16,426 nt of DNA from the IMG/VR virus record IMGVR_UViG_2609459799_000005, one strand, 5' to 3'. This document shows, one piece after another, positions 518 through 16,426 of the stretch (position 1 is its first letter; each line of letters opens with the position of its first letter). The position numbers and the translations under genes are program-made. The notes beneath the pieces are model-generated. The model did no database searches. It had not been told where the DNA came from and saw nothing but the letters and a program-made list of their open reading frames with translations. Source of the stretch: a virus (Duplodnaviria > Heunggongvirae > Uroviricota > Caudoviricetes).

Positions 518-1186
518 ATGGTGAAATCAATGAAAAAAAACACAGATGATGGGGCTAAAATTTACACACCACTTACCCTAAAGCTTTATGACTGGTGGGT
601 TTTGGGAGTATCAAATCGGCTTGCATGGGGATGTCCTACAAAGGAACACCTTCTTCCACACTTTCTGGAACATGTAGGTAACAACCATCTGGATATTGGT
701 GTTGGAACTGGGTTTTACCTTACTCACGTACCTGAGAGTAGTCTGATATCTTTAATGGATTTGAACGAAGCTAGCCTGAACGCGGCATCTACAAGGGCTG
801 GGGAATCAAAAATTAAACATAAAATTAGCCATGATGTTTTTGAACCTTATCCCGCGGCGTTACATGGTCAATTTGATTCCATTTCCATGTTTTACCTTCT
901 TCACTGCCTGCCTGGAAATATATCTACAAAAAGCTGTGTAATACGCAATGCGGCGCAGGCCTTAACTGACGATGGAACTCTATACGGAGCCACAATTCTT
1001 GGCGATGGAGTTGTGCACAATAGCTTCGGTCAAAAACTGATGCGCATTTACAATCAGAAAGGCATCTTTTCAAACACAAAAGATTCCGAAGAAGGCTTAA
1101 CACATATACTCTCAGAGCATTTCGAGAATGTTAAAACCAAGGTTCAAGGTACTGTAGTAATGTTTTCCGCTTCAGGGAAAAAATAG
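518..1186 (+). CDS. Putative class I SAM-dependent methyltransferase-like protein (prophage moron); likely true start at the internal Met near 530
   Basis: 222-aa ORF in an AT-rich island. Gly-rich motif DIGVGTGFYL resembles SAM-binding motif I. A GGTGA Shine-Dalgarno precedes the second ATG (MKKNTDD...). Sits downstream of tfa, as ybcY does in DLP12 (from memory, not verified). Confidence 0.55.
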   Translation: MVKSMKKNTDDGAKIYTPLTLKLYDWWVLGVSNRLAWGCPTKEHLLPHFLEHVGNNHLDIGVGTGFYLTHVPESSLISLMDLNEASLNAASTRAGESKIKHKISHDVFEPYPAALHGQFDSISMFYLLHCLPGNISTKSCVIRNAAQALTDDGTLYGATILGDGVVHNSFGQKLMRIYNQKGIFSNTKDSEEGLTHILSEHFENVKTKVQGTVVMFSASGKK

Positions 1187-1240: not shown

Positions 1241-1825
1241 TTACTCCCTGACAGGGTTCGTAGGCCACTCAATATCAGGTGCAGTTGATGTATCAACACG
1301 GTTCAGCAACACCCGATACTTTTTCCAGGCTTCCAGCAACGAGATTTCTTCCTCTGTTGCAATTTCCAGATCTGCAGCATCCTGAAGCGGCGCAATATGC
1401 TCGCTGGCTACCTGCATCAGGCTGTTTTTTGTTTCTTCCGCCTCCCGGATCCGGAACAGTTTTTCTGCTTCCGTATCCTTCACCCAGGCTGTGCCGTTCC
1501 ACTTCTGAAACTCCCCTTCCGGCGATAACCAGGTAACATTTTCCGGTAACGGACCGAGTTCAGAAATAAATAACTCGTCCCCTGACGCTACGTCATAAAC
1601 CGTTTTACCCCGATGGTCTTCAACGAGATGCCACGATGCCTCATCACTGTTGAAAACAGCCACAAAGCCAGCAGGAATATCTGGTGGTGCAATATCGGTA
1701 CTGTTTGCTGGCAGACCTGTATGAGGCGGAATATATGCGTCACCTTCACCAATAAATTCATTAGTTCCGGCCAGCAGATTATAAATTTTTATGGTCCGTG
1801 CTTGTTCACTCATTCTGAATGCCAT
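1241..1825 (-). CDS. tfa: Tail fibre assembly protein Tfa (lambda Tfa-like)
   Basis: 194-aa product [39 protein letters not shown]... is near-identical over its length to lambda Tfa as I recall it. The start overlaps the stf stop (ATGA overlap at 1825). Confidence 0.9.
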
Positions 1826-5146: not shown

Positions 5147-5434
5147 TCAGAAACGGTATCCGATACCAACAATAAATGCATCCGTTCGCCAGTCGCCACT
5201 ACCGGAACCTTCATAAGCGACATCAATGGCCACGGATTCGGTCGGGTTAAACTGCACGCCAGCTCCCCACGCCAGAGACGTGTTGCTGTGGCGACAGTCA
5301 TCACTTCCGGTCAGCACATCGTGCTTTTTCCCCTTGTTGTCAGTTACGCGGAGATAATCCCCGGAGAAAGTCGACACACGGCTGTAAGCCACACCCGCCA
5401 TCGCATACGCGCTGAACCATTCATTCAGCTGCGC
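5147..5434 (-). pseudogene. lom: C-terminal fragment of outer-membrane protein Lom (Ail/Lom family); N-terminal half deleted
   Basis: Frame reads ...SAYAMAGVAYSRVSTF...SLAWGAGVQFNPTESVAIDVAYEGSGSGDWRTDAFIVGIGYRF, matching the Lom C-terminus (AYEGSGSGDWRTDGFIVG). The reading frame opens only 11 codons upstream of the internal Met and overlaps the J stop. Confidence 0.7.
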
Positions 5435-7316
5435 TCACCTCCACCGTCAGGTGCTGCACTGCCGGTGGGATGACGCTGTTCAGGGAACCTGACTGCGGCT
5501 CAAAGCGGGCACCGTTATCCACGATGGCTTCTTTTTCCGGTACGTGCTGCACCGCCGTGATGGCAAAGGTGCCGTCCGTGTTTTCCCGGATGGAGACACA
5601 GCGGAACAGGCGACGGCGCAGTGACGGCAGGGAGAGTCCCCACACCCCGTATGTCTCCACACCATCAGGCAGGGTACTGACCTGTATCCGGTCCGGCGCG
5701 GGGTGTGCGGTGATGTCCACACTCACCGGCTTACCGCTGCCGTTAATCAGGTTCACCGCCGATGTACCTGTCTCCGGCAGGGTAACCTCACGGTCCAGCG
5801 TCAGGGTGCGGGTGGCAGCATCAATGGACAGGACACGTCCGCCGGTCAGGGTCCCGGCATAGTCATTATCACAGATTTCAATAATGTCACCGGGTGTGTG
5901 CCGCAGCCCCTGAGACCCGAGCGTGAAATCCACCGTCTGCGTTTCCAGCAGTTCGGTCTTTATCACCCACAGTCCGGCACGGTGGGCCTGACCGCGGCTG
6001 GTACAGCCGAACGCGTCCATCTTCAGCAGGTTGCGTCCGTAGCGCAGTATGGCTTCCGGGTCTTCCACCAGTTCCGTGGAGGTCTGCCAGCCGTTCTGCG
6101 GGTCGGTGTAATTCACCTCCACCGCCGTGTGCCGGTCCTTCAGGGCACTGAAGCTGTAGCGGAATCCCACGCCGTTATCATCCACCACCACATCGCTGTT
6201 GGTGTACGGCCACACCACATCCGACGGGCGGTCCTGAACGAACGTCAGCGTCTGACCGTTCCATACCGGCATACAGCGCATCGCAGAGCAGAAATCACTG
6301 AGAACGTCCCACGCCTTACGCTGTTGTGCCAGGTACGCATTAAAGGTCATCCGCGGCTCGGTCCCCCCGAAACCATCCGGGACCGTCTGGTCGCAGTACT
6401 GCCCGATGGCATACAGCGCCCACTTGTCCACATCCGCCGCCCCCAGACGTTTTCCCATGCCGTAGCGCGGGTGAGTCAGCATGTCCCACAGACACCAGGC
6501 CGGGTTGTTGCTGTATGCCGGTTTCAGACTGCCGTCCCAGATACCACTATACGTGCGTTTTTCCGGGTCATAGTTTGACGGCACCTGGATGATGCGACCG
6601 CGGATATGGTAGTTCACCGTCATCTGCTGGCCGCCGAACTGCTCCGCATCCACCTGCAGCCCCACAATGGCCGTGTTCGGGTAGCACTGTTTCACATCGA
6701 TGATTTCGGTGTATGACGACCACAGCGTCTTATTCTGCAGCTGGTCCGTGGTGCTGTCCGCCGTCTCCCTGACCATCCGGATGTTAAAGGGCCGGGGAGG
6801 CAGATTATCCAGAATCACCGAGGCCAGGAACTGTGAGGTGGTCTTGCCGTTAATGGTGACGTCCTTTTCTGTCACCCAGTTACCGTTACGCTGTAACTGA
6901 ATCAGCAGGCGGACGGATGCCGGGTTACGGTCACCCTTTGAGGTGGTCTCCACCAGTGACTGCACCCCGAAGGTAACCCGCAGGCGGTCAATGTTCGCGG
7001 ACGTAATGGTGCGCGTCACCGGTTTTGCCTTCGTCACTTCCACGCCCAGTCCGGTTTCAGCTCCGGAGGACTCAAAGCCTTCCGGTGGTGTCTGCTCCTG
7101 CTCCCCGGCGCGCCAGACCGCCGTCACACCGTGTATCACGGGATTGCCGTCCGTGTCCGTCAGTGGGGTTTTGTTCACCAGAATACTCTGCAGTCCCTTC
7201 ACCGGACCTTCTATCGGTCCCTCACCAATCGCATCAATCACGCTCATCATCTGCGTGGATTTGAGATTATCCTTCGCCTCACGAGGCGTGTGTGCCTTAC
7301 CGCCACCTTTTCCCAT
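5421..7316 (-). pseudogene. J: Tail tip / host specificity protein J, N-terminal 631 aa only (C-terminal receptor-binding part deleted)
   Basis: MGKGGGKAHTPREAKDNLKSTQMMSVIDAIGEGPIEGPV... is collinear with lambda J (about 1130 aa) up to ...PPAVQHLTVEV, then stops and abuts the lom fragment. Shine-Dalgarno GGGGAAGG precedes the ATG. Confidence 0.85.
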
Positions 7317-7420
7317 ACAGCCTTCCCCTGAATAAATTAACCGCCACTTGCCATTCCGTACAGAAGTCGGATATCCTTCGCCCGAAAAGCATGAAACACA
7401 TTTCTGCCATGCTAAAGAGA

Positions 7421-7448
7421 AACCCCGGTATCAGCAGATACCGGGGTT
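7421..7448. terminator. Strong 12-bp stem-loop (bidirectional terminator-like) in the I-J insert
   Basis: aaccccggtatc-agca-gataccggggtt perfect hairpin, followed by ttctttc on the plus strand and tctcttt on the minus strand. Confidence 0.5.
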
Positions 7449-7521
7449 TTCTTTCATGCCCACCGATAATCCTGTTGGTTAAAACCGGTAATGGCATAAA
7501 AATTCTGAATATCTTCACATT

Positions 7522-7549
7522 TTCACACACTGACTGTGGCGCTTATAAT
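7522..7549 (+). promoter_or_regulatory. Sigma70-like promoter candidate (TTCACA - 16 bp - TATAAT) reading toward the terminator at 7621-7654
   Basis: Near-consensus -35 and perfect -10 hexamers with a 16-bp spacer in an AT-rich insert. Predicted start site near 7556. Confidence 0.3.
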
Positions 7550-7620
7550 TTCGCTGCGTTAGTGTTTTTTTGCCCGAGTAACAAAAACAACTCCTTAACA
7601 TTGATCTTCATTTGTCTGTC

Positions 7621-7654
7621 CCCGCAGCTCCGCGATCACTGCGGGATTTTTTTA
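7621..7654 (+). terminator. Rho-independent terminator on the plus strand
   Basis: cccgcag-N11-ctgcggg stem-loop followed by attttttta. Confidence 0.55.
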
Positions 7655-7658
7655 TGTT

Positions 7659-8339
7659 TTATCCCTGTCGCCCGATAACCACGACCGTTCCGCCCCCACC
7701 TTCATCACGGGTGCTGATGTCCTGGGATATACGGCGGGAGCCAACCAGCATTTCCCCGTAAGGCACCGGCATCGGGTTCCCCTGGGCAATCATGTTATCC
7801 AGCGAGGAAAAGTACGTGTTCTGTCTGCCGTTATCCGTTGCGCGGTAATCCGGTGTTTTTGCCTTCGGGGCCAGCATCTGGGCCACACCGCCCAGAATCA
7901 TGCTGGCTCCAAGTGAAAACAGCATCGTGGTGGCAGAAAAACCACCGGCTGCCAGGGCTGAACCCCATAACGCCATTGATGCCCCGGCAGTGAAGAAAGA
8001 GCCCACGATGGCTGCCGCCCCCAGCACAATCTGCAGTCCACCCTTTCCGGCCCCGGCCAGTCGCGGCACAATATGGATGACCGTTCCCTCACCCAGCTGT
8101 TCGTGAAGACGGGCGTACACCGCCTCCGGTGCCGTGTCATAACCGGCAATACGTATCTGGTACCAGCCTTCGTTCATCTGACGGCGAAAGCCCGGCACCT
8201 GTAACGACAGCGCCCGGATGGCTTCCGCTGCCGTGTTCACATACAGGCTGAGGCGGCGGCCAAATCGTTGTAAATCCCCGTGAAGGCAGATGCGTGCCAG
8301 TGGCGGTGACGCCAGACAGAATGCGTTCGTCGTTGCCAT
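7659..8339 (-). CDS. I: Tail assembly protein I (lambda gpI-like)
   Basis: 226 aa. Conserved blocks ARICLHGDLQRFGRR, WYQIRIAG, VIHIVPRLAGAGKGG, LFSLGASMILGGVAQMLAPKAKTP and NTYFSSLDNMIAQGNPMPVPYGEM match lambda gpI. Shine-Dalgarno GGGAGAGG upstream. Confidence 0.85.
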   Translation of the reverse strand: MATTNAFCLASPPLARICLHGDLQRFGRRLSLYVNTAAEAIRALSLQVPGFRRQMNEGWYQIRIAGYDTAPEAVYARLHEQLGEGTVIHIVPRLAGAGKGGLQIVLGAAAIVGSFFTAGASMALWGSALAAGGFSATTMLFSLGASMILGGVAQMLAPKAKTPDYRATDNGRQNTYFSSLDNMIAQGNPMPVPYGEMLVGSRRISQDISTRDEGGGGTVVVIGRQG

Positions 8340-8393
8340 TTTTCGGAATACCTCTCCCGTTTACTCAGTTGTTCAGGCAGATGGTGAAGCAGC

Positions 8394-8885
8394 TCACCGT
8401 TGCCGCAGTAAATGGCGGCATGGTTCGGTATGGGTCTGTACCTGGCAGAGGTCATCCAGATCATCGTCACGTCGTACCATATCCCGGGCAGGGTTGAAGG
8501 CGTTGGCCGCCACCTCCACAGTCGGGGCCAGAATCGTGTAACCCGCCGCCTGCCGCCAGTTCAGTAACAGTGCAGTCATCATGATCCCCGCGGCCAGCGT
8601 GGACTTCGAGTTTTTCTTGGGGATAAGGATAAAAACTTCCTTGATATGGCGTACACCGGTCTGCGCATCGTAGGAGCCAAACAGGGCCGCCACCAGGTCA
8701 AACACCCACGGTGCACAGGACTCCCCGAACGTAGGGCTACCAGGTGCATCCACAATCCGCAGTTGTTTAAAAATCGCCAGGGCATGTGCGGCCTCGTCCG
8801 GATAAATCGGAGCCGGAATAATCGACAGCCCCTTTTTCAGGCGCTCTGCCCAGTCCGGGCAGGCTGTGCTCCATACAGGTATCAT
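8394..8885 (-). pseudogene. terL: Terminase large subunit, N-terminal fragment of about 163 aa (Terminase_1/HK97-type)
   Basis: Start overlaps the terS stop (ATGA). Contains a deviant P-loop-like segment (ILIPKKNSKSTLAAGIMMTALL) as in HK97-type TerL N-termini. The ORF ends after 163 aa, where full TerL is 450 aa or more, and gene I begins 55 bp downstream. Confidence 0.7.
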
Positions 8886-9445
8886 CCGTTGCCCTCATTA
8901 TCGTTATTCACCACCAGTCGGGGTGGCGGTGGCACCGCAAAACGGTTAGCCGCTTTTTTCGCGGCATCACCTTTTGCCGATTTTTTCCCGGTATCCCCTT
9001 TTTTATGGTGCGTGAACTGCGCCAGACGCCAGGCCGCATCCAGTGCCAGTTTCGGATCAATGCAGAGGTTTTCCACCAGGATCCGCCCCATGGCTTTCAC
9101 CGGATCGGGAAGACCATCCTCCATATATTCAATACCAGGAGACATCACCGCGGACGGTGGCATCTCCGGATTGTTTTCGTCCGGCTGTGGTATTGCAGCC
9201 GCCTCACGGCGACGGGGTTTATCCTCCTGCTCTGATTTTTTCTGCCGGTAAACAGGAACCTCATCCACCTCCACCGTCTCGCACTGTTTACGGGCTATAA
9301 ACGCGAGCACCTCCGGATCTTTTGCCAGCTGCGAGCCTTTAACCCTGGCTGTCTTCGCCGAATAACCGGCGGCAATGGCTGACGCTGTTTTGTTTTTCCC
9401 GGACATGAGCGCCAGCGCAAATTTTCGTTTTTGCGTTGTCAGCAC
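8882..9445 (-). CDS. terS: Terminase small subunit (Terminase_2/P27-type, N-terminal HTH)
   Basis: 187 aa. N-terminus MLTTQKRKFALALMSGKNKTASAIAAGYSAKTARVKGSQL... fits the conserved TerS signature (L-T-x-KQ-x-F ... A-A-x-x-AGYS-x-K-T-A). Immediately followed by terL. Confidence 0.75.
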   Translation of the reverse strand: MLTTQKRKFALALMSGKNKTASAIAAGYSAKTARVKGSQLAKDPEVLAFIARKQCETVEVDEVPVYRQKKSEQEDKPRRREAAAIPQPDENNPEMPPSAVMSPGIEYMEDGLPDPVKAMGRILVENLCIDPKLALDAAWRLAQFTHHKKGDTGKKSAKGDAAKKAANRFAVPPPPRLVVNNDNEGNG

Positions 9446-10540: not shown

Positions 10541-10765
10541 TCAACACACTGGTTGTAATGCAGCGGATACCATGCGGCATTTAGCGGCATTCATCGTACA
10601 CTCCACGGTTAGCTCTTCATTCGTGGCATTCACCTGAAAGGTCCGGGAGTGTAATTGCGTACATTTACCACTGAACGAACCTTCAACAAGAACACGACCA
10701 CGCTGCAAAATACGGAACGGAATTGTTCCCTGAAAAGGTTCTACGGTTACCCGTAATTTCTTCAT
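10541..10765 (-). CDS. Hypothetical 74-aa protein translationally coupled to Rz
   Basis: ATG overlaps the Rz stop (ATGA). No signal peptide or recognisable motif. A bor-like or moron function is possible but unsupported. Confidence 0.4.
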
Positions 10766-11256
10766 GTATCCTCCGGATAATAAAAAGCCAGCTTAGTGCA
10801 CTGAGTGCGGATATATTCCTGCGCCCCTTCCAGCTGCTTCTGCATTGTCATCAACCGTTCTCTGAGGATGAAATAATCCCGTTCAGCGGTGTCTGCCAGT
10901 CGGGGGCCGGTTGCATTATCCACGCTGGAGGTGCCGGTGGCTTCACGCACGGTACCGGGGCAGGTGGCGTTGACCCGCAGGCGCTTACGACCAGCGGCAA
11001 CATCAGCGCGCAGAGTTTCATTTTCAGCTCTCGCATCGGCTAATTCCTTCGTGTATCTGGCATCAAGCGCAGCGACATCTCGCTGGCGCTGCTGCATGTC
11101 AGTAATAGTGGCATTCGCCAGTTTCAGCTCACTGACTTTTTTATCGCGCTGCGCTTTGTAGGTGATGGCGTTATCGCGGTAATGATTCAGCCCCAGACTA
11201 AGCACACCACAGGCTACCAGCATGACAATAATCACCACACACAGAACACGGTTCAT
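10762..11256 (-). CDS. Rz: Rz i-spanin (inner-membrane spanin subunit)
   Basis: From the internal Met: [39 protein letters not shown]...[25 protein letters not shown], collinear with lambda Rz. The 28-codon N-terminal extension in the ORF track is judged spurious. Confidence 0.85.
10851..11036 (-). CDS. Rz1: Rz1 o-spanin lipoprotein, embedded in Rz in an alternative frame
   Basis: [51 protein letters not shown] has a lipobox (VSAC) and a Pro-rich body closely matching lambda Rz1. The true start is probably the Met at about 11021. Confidence 0.85.
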
Positions 11257-11257
11257 A

Positions 11258-11344
11258 TCACCACCAACGGATTGCCCAGACCAGAACAGCAATGGCCACA
11301 ATACGAATGGCAAATGCCATTGCCCGAATAAGTTCAGCACTCAT
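11258..11344 (-). CDS. Candidate small hydrophobic peptide b (28 aa, [28 protein letters not shown]); stop overlaps the Rz start region
   Basis: ATG ORF whose TGA lies 1 nt upstream of the Rz ATG (TGATATG). Paralogous to peptide a (9 identical and about 10 conservative positions; several codon differences are synonymous). Weak Shine-Dalgarno. Confidence 0.3.
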
Positions 11345-11898: not shown

Positions 11899-12432
11899 TT
11901 ATCTGTCGATACCCCAGCACGCCAGCGCGCTCTCCTGGTCACGACGGGATACCTGACCGTAGCAGTTGTTTGAACGAATACGGCAGTCTCTGCCACCGTC
12001 CTTAATCCACCAGCGAATCGCCTCACACGCTCCCCTGCGGTCACCAGCATTCAGCCGCTTATAAAACGTCGACGGGAAACACTTACCGGGGCCAATGTTA
12101 TAGGGACAGAATGACGCTATACCCGCTTTCTGTGGTTCGGTCAGTGGAACTTTAATATTGCGCTCCACCCATGCCAGCGCCTTATCCCGTTCAATGGCAT
12201 TAACCTGGTCGCATTTTTCCTTCGACAGTTTCATGCCCGGAATAACAGGTTTACCATCCACCATTGTGGCACCGCGGCAGATGGTCCAGATACCCGCACC
12301 ATCACGGTATGCCGTTGTGTGGTTACCTTCTTTTTCATCCAGAAACTGGTCGAGAATATCAGGCGCAGGCGCACCGATGGCAATCAACGCCAGAACGGCA
12401 GCCGACAGGCCATATTTGATTTTGGTGTTCAT
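11899..12432 (-). CDS. R: Phage endolysin (lysozyme), probable SAR-type with N-terminal hydrophobic segment
   Basis: 177 aa. YGLSAAVLALIAIGAPAP hydrophobic N-terminus, then EGNHTTAYRDGAGIWTICRGAT... typical of lambdoid prophage lysozymes (RrrD-like, from memory). Confidence 0.9.
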   Translation of the reverse strand: MNTKIKYGLSAAVLALIAIGAPAPDILDQFLDEKEGNHTTAYRDGAGIWTICRGATMVDGKPVIPGMKLSKEKCDQVNAIERDKALAWVERNIKVPLTEPQKAGIASFCPYNIGPGKCFPSTFYKRLNAGDRRGACEAIRWWIKDGGRDCRIRSNNCYGQVSRRDQESALACWGIDR

Positions 12433-12560: not shown

Positions 12561-12875
12561 ATGCATAACGATCAACATAATTATGATTTATGCCTGCAAG
12601 CCATAAATGAGCGGGTAAAATCAGAGTGCCTCTTACTCCTCCCACAAGAACACGATGCAGTAAAATCCATTCAGGCTGAGCCGTATGGACATCTCACACC
12701 TGTGACTCTCGGCATTATCGCCAGAGCATTAACACAGCCCATGCTTATGCGTATTAAGACCAATATAAATAACTGGTTGAATGAAGAATTAAGCTACCTT
12801 GATTGTGAGTGGGACAATCATTACGCAAAAACACAAAAAGAACGCATCTTCAGTCGATTATCCAGCAACAGATAA
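12561..12875 (+). CDS. Hypothetical protein (104 aa), AT-rich moron occupying the position where a holin gene is expected
   Basis: ATG with Shine-Dalgarno GAGGA and a 7-nt spacer. Roughly 40 percent GC against about 53 percent in flanking phage genes. No transmembrane segment or recognisable motif. Convergent with the nanS-like gene and divergent from R. Confidence 0.5.
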   Translation: MHNDQHNYDLCLQAINERVKSECLLLLPQEHDAVKSIQAEPYGHLTPVTLGIIARALTQPMLMRIKTNINNWLNEELSYLDCEWDNHYAKTQKERIFSRLSSNR

Positions 12876-12884
12876 CGAGCCACC

Positions 12885-14594
12885 TTATATACGCCCTTTC
12901 AGATAAGTCATCCCCGGCTGCATCCAGTCAACAGGTGCTTTCTTAAAGGGCGTATTCCCGAACTCGCCCAACTTTGTGTTTCCTGCTTTCTTGTGATGCA
13001 TCAGATTCAGTTTGCCGTCTGTGGTCTGGGTGAAGAACGACATCAGGAACGGGTTACCAGTCCCGGTCATCGCCACGACGTCAGGTAACGCTACATCGGT
13101 ATACAGATAAATTCCCAGACCGAACTGGTTGTTGGTCAGTGCGCCTGACAGTCGAAACTTACAGCTCAGTCTGCCACCCCGTGTCAGCAGGGAGACTGCG
13201 TCATCCACCGGGCGCGTCAGGGACCAGGCTTTATTGCTCTGCTTGGTGATCTTAAATACACCATCTGACAACTGAATTCCGCCATTCTTAATGCTCCAGC
13301 CCTGCGCAGCAGCATCTCCGGCTGTCGGCAACAGGGAGATTGTGCGTACGGATGCATCTTCAGACGGCCCCGATGGCGTGTCGCCGCCGGGCGAGGGTTT
13401 GATTTCCGGTGCCTTACCACTAATGAAGGCTAAGGTGCGACCGGCTACGTTCAGAATAGCAGTTGCCATACGATCGGGAATAATGCCACGACGCGCCCAT
13501 GAGCTGAAATGCGTCGGGCGATTTGATGATACCCAGTTTTTGTTCGTTCGGGATGCCGAACCGTAATAACCAGACCCGACAATATCAGGATCTTCTGACG
13601 GGTTGTTTGTCGGTGTATTAACTCCGCTACCATCGGTCATAAAGGGAACAAAATAAATCTGCTGGGATTCTTTACCTTTATATGCACCATATACCACTTC
13701 ATATTGTGTACCGTGTTCTTGTTTCCACGCGTATGTCGTGTCGCCACAAATCCAGGGGACTGATGCCGGACTTCCACCGTGACACTGCGCCGCCAGCCCG
13801 GCAAGGTCAGCACGGAACTGCTGTACCATTGCAAGAAATGCTGCTGGCTGCTGGGCGTAACTGGCATTCTTCATATCGAATTCCCCCTGCATCCAGCATA
13901 TCGCCAGCAAAACGTTTTTCGGGTTTTTCTGCAATGCTGCCTTCGTGCGGAAAAGCAGATCCTGATATAACGGCTTACCCACTCCCCAGCGAGCCGAATC
14001 CTGACTGGCCCCCGTGGACTCGCTGAATGTCCCCTCCGTGCCCTGGGTGAATGCCGAACCACCACGACAGCATGGTACCAGCAGGATCCCCGCATTATTA
14101 GGGATATACGGAAGCAGTTTTTTGGCAATATGTAAGCCCTGTCCGACACAGCCGTACTGCCCTTTGCTCAGGTCAGCCCGGGGATGGTTAATCGTACTCA
14201 TATCCTGAACATCATGCAGACAATGGTCAGCAGGAATGATGTCGTTAAATACGCATACTTCACCACCGGGAGTCACTGTGTTACGACGGGCCAGTTGCTT
14301 AATGCGCGGATGGGGCGCATCGTATGAATCCGGAAGCGGAAGCCCTTCACCGTAAGCCATGGCATTAGACTGCCCGGCCAGTACGATGACGTAGTACCAC
14401 TCCGGCTCAGTTGCACCACTGACGACCACATCACCTTCTGCGACAATCGCCTGAATAAGTGCTGCGCCATCATCCGTATACGAAGAAAACGGCCCGCCGT
14501 ATGGTTGCCATCCTTCACGAATTTTTTGAGCAAGTGCATCAGCAAGGTCTGACGGCGATACCGCCCTGACAACATCATAGTGTTTAAATGCCAT
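12885..14594 (-). CDS. nanS: Prophage sialate O-acetylesterase (NanS-p-like; N-terminal DUF1737-like region plus SASA/SGNH-type esterase domain)
   Basis: 569 aa. YYVIVLAGQSNAMAYGEG carries the GQSN catalytic-serine motif of 9-O-acetylesterases. Position between the tRNA module and the lysis genes mirrors nanS-p in EHEC lambdoid prophages. Confidence 0.8.
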   Translation of the reverse strand: MAFKHYDVVRAVSPSDLADALAQKIREGWQPYGGPFSSYTDDGAALIQAIVAEGDVVVSGATEPEWYYVIVLAGQSNAMAYGEGLPLPDSYDAPHPRIKQLARRNTVTPGGEVCVFNDIIPADHCLHDVQDMSTINHPRADLSKGQYGCVGQGLHIAKKLLPYIPNNAGILLVPCCRGGSAFTQGTEGTFSESTGASQDSARWGVGKPLYQDLLFRTKAALQKNPKNVLLAICWMQGEFDMKNASYAQQPAAFLAMVQQFRADLAGLAAQCHGGSPASVPWICGDTTYAWKQEHGTQYEVVYGAYKGKESQQIYFVPFMTDGSGVNTPTNNPSEDPDIVGSGYYGSASRTNKNWVSSNRPTHFSSWARRGIIPDRMATAILNVAGRTLAFISGKAPEIKPSPGGDTPSGPSEDASVRTISLLPTAGDAAAQGWSIKNGGIQLSDGVFKITKQSNKAWSLTRPVDDAVSLLTRGGRLSCKFRLSGALTNNQFGLGIYLYTDVALPDVVAMTGTGNPFLMSFFTQTTDGKLNLMHHKKAGNTKLGEFGNTPFKKAPVDWMQPGMTYLKGRI

Positions 14595-14787
14595 GAATCC
14601 TCCCGGCCGGGATAATATTGTGAGTAAAATGAGGAGCGGGCTGAAGTCCGGAAGCTACAGGACAATGGCAGAAGAGAGACAATAGCCCGCAATACGAAAA
14701 GGCCGCGCTATTGCGCAGAGTGATTACTGTCGGATATTATTCGCCAGCTGAAATATTACTTCACGTTTTGTTGTTTATTCCTTGCCG

Positions 14788-14815
14788 CCCGCGTCTCCCT
14801 GCGCGGGATTTTTTT
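14788..14815 (+). terminator. Rho-independent terminator on the plus strand in the tRNA-nanS gap
   Basis: cccgcg-N8-cgcggg followed by seven T. Confidence 0.5.
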
Positions 14816-14820
14816 GTCCA

Positions 14821-14845
14821 TAAGAAAGCCCCTCCGGAGAGGGGC
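14821..14845 (-). terminator. Rho-independent terminator on the minus strand downstream of the tRNA module
   Basis: gcccctc-cgga-gaggggc, followed on the minus strand by tttctta. Confidence 0.5.
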
Positions 14846-15082
14846 TGGAGAGTGGCGCTATGTGCCATTGCATGGTGCCGGGTGCCTCCCGGTGAATTCA
14901 GTACCAGCACCTGAATCCGCGATTATCCCATATACCTACTCGCTGATTGCCCCTCCGCACAGGGGGATTCACCATGCCAGTTTCTTTTAACAAACTCCCC
15001 GCAAAACAGACAACTGTCAACCGTCTGAATTGTGAGACATTTAAAAAAAAGGCCCGCAAAAGCGAGCCAGGGAAAATAAGTG

Positions 15083-15159
15083 TGGCGCGTTGTACTGGAT
15101 TCGAACCAGTGACCGATTGCTTAGAAGGCAATTGCTCTGTCCGGCTGAGCTAACAACGC
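15083..15159 (-). tRNA. tRNA-Arg (anticodon UCU), phage-encoded
   Basis: Manual fold: acceptor GCGTTGT/ACAACGC, D-stem GCTC/GAGC, anticodon stem ATTGC/GCAAT with loop CTTCTAA, T-arm ACTGG-TTCGAAT-CCAGT, discriminator G, encoded CCA. Confidence 0.85.
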
Positions 15160-15172
15160 ATGATGCAGATAA

Positions 15173-15249
15173 TGGACCGCCATCGGGGACTCGAACCCCG
15201 CGCAACCAGCTTCGAAGGCTGGCGCTCTATCCTGATGAGCTAATGGCGG
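15173..15249 (-). tRNA. tRNA-Arg (anticodon UCG), phage-encoded
   Basis: Manual fold: acceptor CCGCCAT/ATGGCGG, D-stem GCTC/GAGC, anticodon stem CCAGC/GCTGG with loop CTTCGAA, T-arm CGGGG-TTCGAGT-CCCCG, encoded CCA. C1:G72 and a U discriminator are unusual. Confidence 0.75.
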
Positions 15250-15256
15250 TATGTGA

Positions 15257-15332
15257 TGGTGGCCCTTGCTGGATTTGAACCAGCGACCTGGCGATTATGA
15301 GTCGCTCGCTCTCACCACTGAGCTAAAGGGCC
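15257..15332 (-). tRNA. ileZ: tRNA-Ile2 (anticodon CAU, lysidine-type), phage-encoded
   Basis: GGCCCTTTAGCTCAGTGGTGAGAGCGAGCGACTCATAATCGCCAGGTCGCTGGTTCAAATCCAGCAAGGGCCACCA is very similar to E. coli tRNA-Ile2 (ileX). First gene of the three-tRNA module found downstream of Q in Stx-type lambdoid phages. Confidence 0.85.
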
Positions 15333-15381
15333 GCGCGCAGAATAATAACGTTACGGAATTAATACTGCAATCTCATCCGTT

Positions 15382-16426
15382 TCAAACGATTAAATCCTGA
15401 ACTTCCCTGACTGTCTGCTCAAAACGTCCGGTCTCCAGCTCAACACCAATCGCACGACGCCCCAGTGCCATCGCCGCTTTTACCGTTGAACCCGACCCCA
15501 TGAAAAAATCCGCAACCAGATCACCAGGACGACTACTTGCGCTGATTATCTGCTGCAGCATTTCTGCCGGTTTTTCGCACGGATGTTTCCCTGGATAGTA
15601 CTGCACCGGTTTATACGTCCACACATCGGTGTACGGCACCTGCGCCGTCACACCAAAATACCGCCGCAGATGCTTATATTCACTCTGCAGCTCCACATAC
15701 TGCCGGTTCAGTGACGTATACGTATCCACCAGCTGGTGGTGGGGCTTTTCCAGTTCACCGCGCTGATGTTTCTCTTCTGCCACCCGGGCAAACAGCGACT
15801 GTAATTTCAGATAATCGCTTTCGTTCGGTAGCTGCCACTGACTGGCACTGAACCAGTGCGACACCATGTTTTTCTTTCCTGTGGCATCTGCAATCTGTTT
15901 TGCCGTTATCCCCAGGGCCGCGCGCGCATCACGAAAGTAAGAAATCAGCGGGGCCATCACATGCTGTTTCAGTGCACTGCCCTTCGCCGCATACCCGGCA
16001 TCTTTCGGACGATACGGCCCCTGATAATGTTCCGCGAACAGAATGCGCTCTGTGGCGGGGGAATACGCCCGCAGGCTTTCCTTGTTGCATCCGTTCCAGC
16101 GTCCGGACGGCTTCGCCCAGATAATATGGTTCAGCACACTGAAGCGTTCACGCATCATGATTTCGATATCAGATGCCAGGCGATGACCACAGAACAGGTA
16201 AAGACTTCCGGCAGGTTTCAGCACCCGCCAGAACTGCGCCAGACACTGGTCCAGCCACTTCAGGTAATCATCGTCGCCCTTCCACTGGTTATCCCAGCCT
16301 TCAGGCTTCACTTTAAAGTACGGCGGGTCCGTGACTATCAGGTCAACAGAATTTTCGGGTAACGACCGGATAAATTCCAGGCAGTCGGCGTTGATTAACT
16401 CACAACTGGATATTTTTACAGTATTA
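15382..16426 (-). CDS. DNA amino-methyltransferase (N6-adenine or N4-cytosine, beta-class); 5' end lies beyond the window edge
   Basis: The frame stays open to the window edge and the upstream translation gives ...DCLEFIRSLPENSVDLIVTDPPYF (catalytic DPPY motif IV). C-terminal FFMGSGSTVKAA is the SAM-binding FxGxG motif. The ORF-track start at 16311 is a GTG internal to the gene. Confidence 0.85.
   Translation of the reverse strand, partial: NTVKISSCELINADCLEFIRSLPENSVDLIVTDPPYFKVKPEGWDNQWKGDDDYLKWLDQCLAQFWRVLKPAGSLYLFCGHRLASDIEIMMRERFSVLNHIIWAKPSGRWNGCNKESLRAYSPATERILFAEHYQGPYRPKDAGYAAKGSALKQHVMAPLISYFRDARAALGITAKQIADATGKKNMVSHWFSASQWQLPNESDYLKLQSLFARVAEEKHQRGELEKPHHQLVDTYTSLNRQYVELQSEYKHLRRYFGVTAQVPYTDVWTYKPVQYYPGKHPCEKPAEMLQQIISASSRPGDLVADFFMGSGSTVKAAMALGRRAIGVELETGRFEQTVREVQDLIV

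Follow-up and report, generated by a model that had tools for sequence, protein, structure and literature searches.

A small RNA dyad and esterase leader module very probably occupies the interval between the tRNA cluster and the nanS-p-type gene of a stx-negative lambdoid prophage

We suggest that the 488-bp interval between the tRNA cluster and the esterase gene (15082..14595) of the prophage analysed here is very probably the standard sRNA dyad and esterase leader module of lambdoid prophage late regions. The window, the whole stretch of DNA that was analysed, is 16,426 nt long (IMG/VR record IMGVR_UViG_2609459799_000005). Such elements have been described before and are common, and a near-identical ortholog has been characterised by experiment. 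The assignment of the window copy is based on homology, on conserved structure together with the fit to an RNA family, on published probes that match exactly and on the position of the cargo junction, while transcription, Hfq binding and the sizes of ~222 and ~271 nt come from the near-identical orthologs only.

ARAGORN and Pfam bore out the order given in the first-pass annotation of this DNA (methylase, tRNA-Ile2/Arg/Arg, gap, nanS-like gene, lysis genes). The minus strand carries, in this order, a DNA methylase, tRNA-Ile2(CAT)/Arg/Arg, the 488-bp interval, a nanS-p-type esterase and the lysis genes, and the lysozyme and Rz genes downstream of the esterase were identified by Pfam annotation. 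The features of this region are:

15382..16426, minus strand: DNA methyltransferase (N6_N4_Mtase; Pfam PF01555, E = 5e-40), ORF 16311..15382, 5' end beyond the window
15083..15332, minus strand: phage tRNA cluster (ARAGORN and Rfam tRNA matches)
15332..15257, minus strand: tRNA(CAT; ileZ-type Ile2) (ARAGORN)
15249..15173, minus strand: tRNA-Arg(TCG) (ARAGORN)
15159..15083, minus strand: tRNA-Arg(TCT) (ARAGORN)
15041..15068, minus strand: intrinsic terminator of the tRNA cluster (hairpin 15068..15051), stem-loop GGCTCGCTTTTGCGGGCC followed by T8 (terminator scan)
15038..15045, minus strand: unoccupied cargo (moron) junction of ~5-8 nt, where Stx2 phages carry the 1332-bp stx2 cassette
14816..15033, minus strand: STnc100-family sRNA gene, EcOnc05 ortholog (Rfam RF02076 match 15006..14816; predicted 5' end ~15033)
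14818..14846, minus strand: Rho-independent terminator of this sRNA, AGCCCCTCTCCGGAGGGGCT followed by TTTCTTAT (terminator scan), identical with the STnc100 terminal helix
14623..14815, plus strand: convergent antisense RNA, ortholog of EcOnc08/EcOnc21 (Sp4) and of EcOnc42 (Stx1 phage Sp15), placed by the probe match and the terminator at 14788..14815
14703..14718, minus strand: hairpin with a T-rich tail in the esterase leader (terminator scan)
12885..14604, minus strand: nanS-p-type sialate O-acetylesterase of 569 aa with its SD, ORF 14594..12885 (Pfam DUF1737, SASA and DUF6645; PF08410, PF03629, PF20350)

The CAT tRNA is annotated as tRNA-Ile (ileZ) in RefSeq relatives and in the genome of E. 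coli O157:H7 Sakai. Sakai prophages Sp4 and Sp5 carry the same tRNA set, annotated ileZ/argN/argO, so the tRNA module is phage-borne and not host-derived. The tRNA-cluster terminator is kept upstream of stx2A in Stx2 phages. The esterase SD sequence GGGAGGA is located at 14604..14598, and the window protein has the DUF1737 plus SASA esterase architecture of NanS-p (Pfam).

The minus strand of the interval matched the Rfam family STnc100 (RF02076) at 15006..14816 with 139.2 bits against a gathering cut-off of 47 (E = 3.3e-31), and the match is full-length, covering model positions 1-206 of 206. The northern probe for EcOnc05 (Tree et al. 2014) matches exactly at 14914..14948 of the plus strand, placing the RNA on the minus strand. 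The closing helix, the internal hairpins and the 3' Rho-independent terminator expected of the family are all found. RNAalifold analysis of six copies detected 57 pairs, 6 of them with compensatory changes, in a conserved multibranch core, comprising the GCAUGGUG/CACCAUGC closing helix, a CCCCU hairpin, the GGNUUCAG hairpin (two compensatory pairs), a CCGGG hairpin and the terminator. The MFE of the sRNA corresponds to z = -2.42. Judged from this match and the probe, the predicted minus-strand RNA belongs to STnc100 and is orthologous to EcOnc05. STnc100 is a repeated family in related strains: 11 transcribed copies are reported in EDL933, one of which (STnc100_4, 191 nt) was confirmed by northern blot, and the copy downstream of stx2 is EcOnc27/sRNA103.

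The central segment of the six-copy alignment is variable with large indels, and together with the compensatory pairs this pattern fits RNA rather than coding sequence. It bears on the alternative that the interval encodes at least one small protein and is conserved as coding sequence, for which there are several indications: in relatives, PGAP places a partial pseudogene for a 'hypothetical protein' on the strand opposite the sRNA, the ORF at 14947..15153 (plus strand) matches phrog_27294 (function unknown) with E = 9e-46, and ribosome footprints were observed on some EDL933 STnc100 copies. However, the ORFs of the interval are all at most 77 aa, mostly with TTG or GTG starts, and the others at most 32 aa; a search of these small ORFs against Pfam gave no match, and the phrog_27294 match is the sole PHROG or Pfam match among them. 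The matching ORF runs antisense across tRNA-Arg(TCT) and the tRNA terminator, and it is probably an over-annotation, the family having been built from over-called ORFs on the conserved tRNA region. Variation between copies keeps the base pairs and not the reading frame. We consider a small protein highly improbable here, in agreement with the earlier view that the interval holds no credible ORF.

A simple sigma-70 scan found no minus-strand promoter for the sRNA. Its 5' end would lie at ~15033, based on the ~222-nt northern size of the ortholog and on a weak TTAAAT -10-like hexamer at 15044..15039; a start set by this hexamer predicts ~216 nt, compared with ~222 nt for EcOnc05. The equivalent hexamer in Sp5, TGTAAT, predicts 234 nt, near the published 235/247 nt. 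Since PasD2, a distant relative, starts at the GCAUGGUG motif, the RNA may also have a 5' end at 14977, produced by processing or from another start.

On the opposite strand, the northern probe for EcOnc08/21/42 matches the minus strand exactly at 14741..14707, which places this RNA on the plus strand. Its putative 5' end is uncertain, either ~14623, following an ATGCCA-17-GATAAT promoter-like site with its -10 hexamer at 14611..14616, or ~14545, if the RNA has 271 nt; the sole plus-strand promoter-like site predicts ~193 nt rather than 271 nt. Apart from the terminator, the putative 271-nt RNA folds no more strongly than expected (z = -0.14). Plus-strand positions 14762..14815 have 92.6% identity with E2348C_1409.E2348C_1408.IGR, an sRNA candidate from RIL-seq in EPEC. 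AsxR and AgvB (RF02703/RF02702) were considered as candidates for the plus-strand RNA and rejected, the covariance models giving no hit at E <= 10 in 14690..14860, and the sequence being unrelated; AsxR of Sp5 scores 88.1 bits, compared with none at the same position in the window. On this comparison, the predicted plus-strand RNA is not a member of the AsxR/AgvB family, though it has the same position.

The hairpin at 14703..14718 in the esterase leader is kept in Sp5 (L006 ~6708..6735). It is common to the window and the Stx2 phage Sp5, although the convergent sRNA partners differ. It may act, on one strand or the other, as an attenuator or as a site for Hfq or RNase.

The closest characterised relative of the module is found in Sakai prophage Sp4, with which window positions 15348..14487 align at 95.3% identity over 864 nt with 2 gaps. 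Sp4 has ileZ1-argN1-argO1 followed by a 489-bp gap and ECs1088. For Sp4, Table S2 of Tree et al. 2014 (Mol Cell, PMC4104026) lists EcOnc05 on the plus strand (peak 1179806..1179914, ~222 nt) and, on the minus strand, EcOnc08 (1179938..1180010) and EcOnc21 (1180016..1180101); EcOnc08/21 measures ~271 nt on northern blots, and the Stx1 phage Sp15 has a homolog, EcOnc42. According to the same study, EcOnc05 and EcOnc08/21 bind Hfq and were detected in uninduced lysogens by Hfq-CRAC and northern blots, and Sp3, Sp4, Sp5, Sp9, Sp10, Sp11, Sp15 and Sp17 carry convergent sRNAs at their moron site, which follows PR'. Such convergent pairs have been termed sRNA dyads (review PMC7873438). Projected through the alignment, the CRAC peaks fall at ~14944..14836 (EcOnc05), 14812..14740 (EcOnc08) and 14734..14649 (EcOnc21) of the window. 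Both published probes match exactly on the correct strands, and, as in the dyads, the pair lies downstream of PR'/Q and ahead of the lysis genes, its convergent terminators separated by a few nt.

The terminator scan detected 5 terminator-like hairpins in the interval, compared with 1.3 +/- 1.3 in shuffles, among them the opposed hairpins at 14846..14827 (minus strand) and 14788..14807 (plus strand). The two opposed intrinsic terminators described at first pass thus exist, but instead of bordering a slot, each closes one of two convergent sRNA genes. The probe matches and the Sp4 alignment assign them as the 3' ends of two known convergent RNAs. The suggestion that any small RNA here would be co-regulated with late transcription holds for the presence of sRNA, while dependence on late transcription is not needed, the orthologs having been seen in uninduced lysogens.

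The interval had been read as an empty cargo site, and in its full form this reading takes the whole ~490 bp as an empty, terminator-flanked slot in place of stxAB, with no function beyond insulation. The absence of stxAB, the flanks homologous to Stx phages and the enrichment of terminator-like hairpins would agree with it. However, Stx1 and Stx2 phages carry this ~450 bp too, after stxB, and stx therefore does not take its place. STnc100 was found 75 nt after stx2B in a Stx2a phage (L001), after stx1B in a Stx1 phage (L002), and also in the stx-negative phi296, in E. coli 55989 and in FDAARGOS_1059. In Sakai Sp5 it follows stx2B directly (207.7 bits, L006 6423..6628), and the convergent AsxR (6630..6682, minus strand of L006) abuts it. 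In addition, the interval scores three times the threshold of a curated sRNA family and corresponds to RNAs that were detected experimentally. The alignment to Stx phages refutes the empty slot, which we regard as extremely improbable; STnc100 and the convergent RNA lie inside the ~490 bp, and the slot is confined to 15045..15038.

The position of this junction was determined from the alignment to the Stx2a phage L001. The methylase-tRNA segment is 93.7% identical over 1388 nt; window positions 16426..15042 align to L001 783..2168, and the alignment resumes from window position 15039 onward at L001 3501 onward. The 1332 bp between the aligned L001 flanks consist of the stx2 promoter, stx2A, stx2B and 41 nt. 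The junction at 15045..15038 is bounded by the T-run of the tRNA terminator and by the beginning of the sRNA module. It reads GGCTCGCTTTTGCGGGCC-T8-AAATG-TCTCACAATTCAG in the window, Sp4, 55989 and FDAARGOS_1059, while in Stx2 phages the similarity breaks off behind the T-run and resumes at TGTCACAATTCAG. The flanks of the Stx-phage locus (methylase and ileZ-argN-argO on one side, sRNA module and nanS-p on the other) are homologous in the window, and stxA and stxB are missing from their place between the tRNAs/PR' and the esterase. The proposal that the window represents a stx-negative relative of Stx phages was thus confirmed, with flanks homologous to the Stx2a late region and a clean junction. 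The search for stx remnants by tblastn (Stx1A/B, Stx2A/B) and blastn (both cassettes) gave chance-level matches only (best E = 0.54 and 0.25, respectively).

A recent precise deletion of the toxin cassette, rather than a lineage that never carried stx, would also produce such a junction. The junction coincides exactly with the end of the Stx2 cassette, the left flank matches Stx2c and other Stx2 phages at 100% identity only as far as 15045, i.e., up to the T-run, and Zhu et al. 2026 argue for repeated stx loss near Pas sRNAs. Against a recent loss, there is no stx remnant or scar, and the identical junction is present in Sakai Sp4, in 55989 and in ~1000 complete genomes of many pathotypes: a 121-nt junction-spanning probe is intact in 1015 of 5426 complete E. 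coli genomes (~19%), and the whole 488 bp is covered at >=80% in 973 complete E. coli genomes. In addition, the junction of the stx-negative phi296 differs by 27 extra nt in common with the Stx1 phage, suggesting several independent junction types. We consider recent loss quite unlikely, and lean towards an old, widespread stx-free allele or lineage, on account of its breadth across genomes and the absence of a scar.

The motif AAATGTTAAAT(G/A)C was observed just upstream of the sRNA module in phi296 (L003 2830..2873) and in the Stx1 phage (L002 3320..3349), and is missing from the window and from Stx2 phages. This distribution suggests at least three distinct types of cargo-site junction.

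The prophage outside the module is decayed, and the window is a mosaic, no complete E. coli genome covering 80% or more of it. The remaining genes of interest are:

11899..12432: lysozyme, no holin left
10762..11340: Rz, no holin left
8882..9445, minus strand: TerS
8394..8885, minus strand: N-terminal ATPase fragment of TerL, 163 aa
7659..8339, minus strand: gpI-like
5421..7316, minus strand: gpJ-like, shortened, 631 aa

Relative to E. coli 55989, a 1326-bp deletion (L005 5975..7300; joint at window 12954..12956) takes the last ~50 esterase codons, the class II holin gene and ydfR, and the esterase is C-terminally shortened (569 aa vs 621 aa). Window 5421..9445 has no portal, capsid or tail-shaft genes, and the terminase remnants there lie directly before the tail-tip/fibre genes. 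The missing head and tail-shaft genes indicate that the prophage is defective. An intact tRNA-sRNA module in a prophage without holin and head genes is consistent with host retention of this segment, though it does not prove it.

Several other features of the window were observed. The tail-fibre-assembly (Caudo_TAP) ORF at 1241..1825 contains a full-length match to Rfam IS009 (RF02111; 223 bits, 1284..1482, minus strand), an RNA reported in the literature as prophage-associated. A 104-aa ATG ORF (12561..12875, plus strand) lies between the esterase and lysozyme genes on the opposite strand; in 55989 it is annotated as the hypothetical protein WP_000551290.1, and Pfam gave no match. PasA and PasC were sought between the esterase and lysozyme genes, and none was found. 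Beyond the tail-fibre genes, the ORF at 518..1186 (plus strand) encodes a class I SAM-dependent methyltransferase, likely cargo of the prophage end.

The proposed order of elements met by late transcription on the minus strand would be the intrinsic terminator of the ileZ-argN-argO cluster; the putative ~215-nt STnc100-family sRNA gene (EcOnc05 ortholog) with its own Rho-independent terminator; the EcOnc08/21/42-type RNA, which would converge from the plus strand, end at the opposed terminator and be antisense to the esterase leader; and the leader and SD of the nanS-p-type esterase. The site used by the stx2 cassette in Stx2 phages is the one between the tRNA terminator and the STnc100 sRNA, unoccupied in the window, and the unoccupied junction of a few bases points to a stx-negative relative of the Sp4 type. 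Both RNAs would be transcribed from their own promoters in the lysogen and, by analogy with RIL-seq results on the related PasD RNAs, would regulate mRNAs of the host and the prophage in trans and in an Hfq-dependent manner. After induction, Q-modified polymerase starting at PR' would pass the four terminators and reach the esterase and lysis genes; since the prophage is defective, this late transcription may have ceased.

If the plus-strand RNA has ~271 nt, it would start inside the esterase coding sequence (~14545) and would be complementary to the start codon, the SD and the whole leader. A role as cis-antisense regulator of the nanS-p esterase, beyond that of a trans-acting Hfq sRNA, is a tentative idea that we regard as unlikely; if true, it would couple esterase expression to the lysogenic state.

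Taken together, these results correct an annotation habit, as empty-looking intervals in prophage late regions often hold conserved pairs of Hfq-binding sRNAs, and such pairs link prophages to host regulation (AsxR, AgvB, EcOnc27 and the Pas RNAs). The stx2 cargo junction is narrowed to ~8 nt that separate the terminator of the tRNA cluster from the sRNA module, and the ~19% frequency of the unoccupied allele provides a baseline for studies of stx gain and loss.

Among the known systems, the stx locus of 933W, Sp5 and Sp15 has the same Q-dependent late region, methylase, ileZ-argN-argO, esterase and lysis genes with flanks homologous to the window, whereas in the window stxAB and the stx promoter are absent and the cargo junction is closed. 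PasD1/PasD2 of EPEC E2348/69 (Pearl Mizrahi et al. 2021; Zhu, Shabalina and Storz 2026 preprint) have the 5' GCAUGGUGAAUCC..GGAGGGGC motif in common with the window sRNA, and common ancestry of PasD with STnc100 has been reported, but PasD has another 3' half, seed (CUUGUGAG) and terminator, and only ~40 nt align. PasD was accordingly rejected as an assignment for the minus-strand sRNA, PasD2 aligning over the first ~40 nt only, and the sRNA was assigned to STnc100/EcOnc05. AsxR/AgvB resemble the plus-strand RNA of the window in being convergent and abutting the STnc100 terminator (AsxR in Sp5), but their conserved 42-nt 3' region is missing from it, and they have 51-60 nt, compared with ~271 nt for the Sakai ortholog of the window RNA.

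EcOnc27/sRNA103 (STnc100 of the Sp5/933W type) shares with the window sRNA the RNA family, the GCAUGGUG...CACCAUGC closing helix, three internal hairpins, the terminator and the place relative to the esterase gene. The window sRNA differs in its central variable region, which is ~20-25 nt shorter and of unrelated sequence (columns 92-142 of A1), and is preceded by the tRNA terminator, whereas EcOnc27/sRNA103 is preceded by stx2B. The EcOnc05 and EcOnc08/21 dyad of Sp4 is ~5% divergent from the window copy, and the window prophage is more decayed than Sp4, having lost holin and head genes, but the position, the strands and the terminator pair of the dyad are the same in both.
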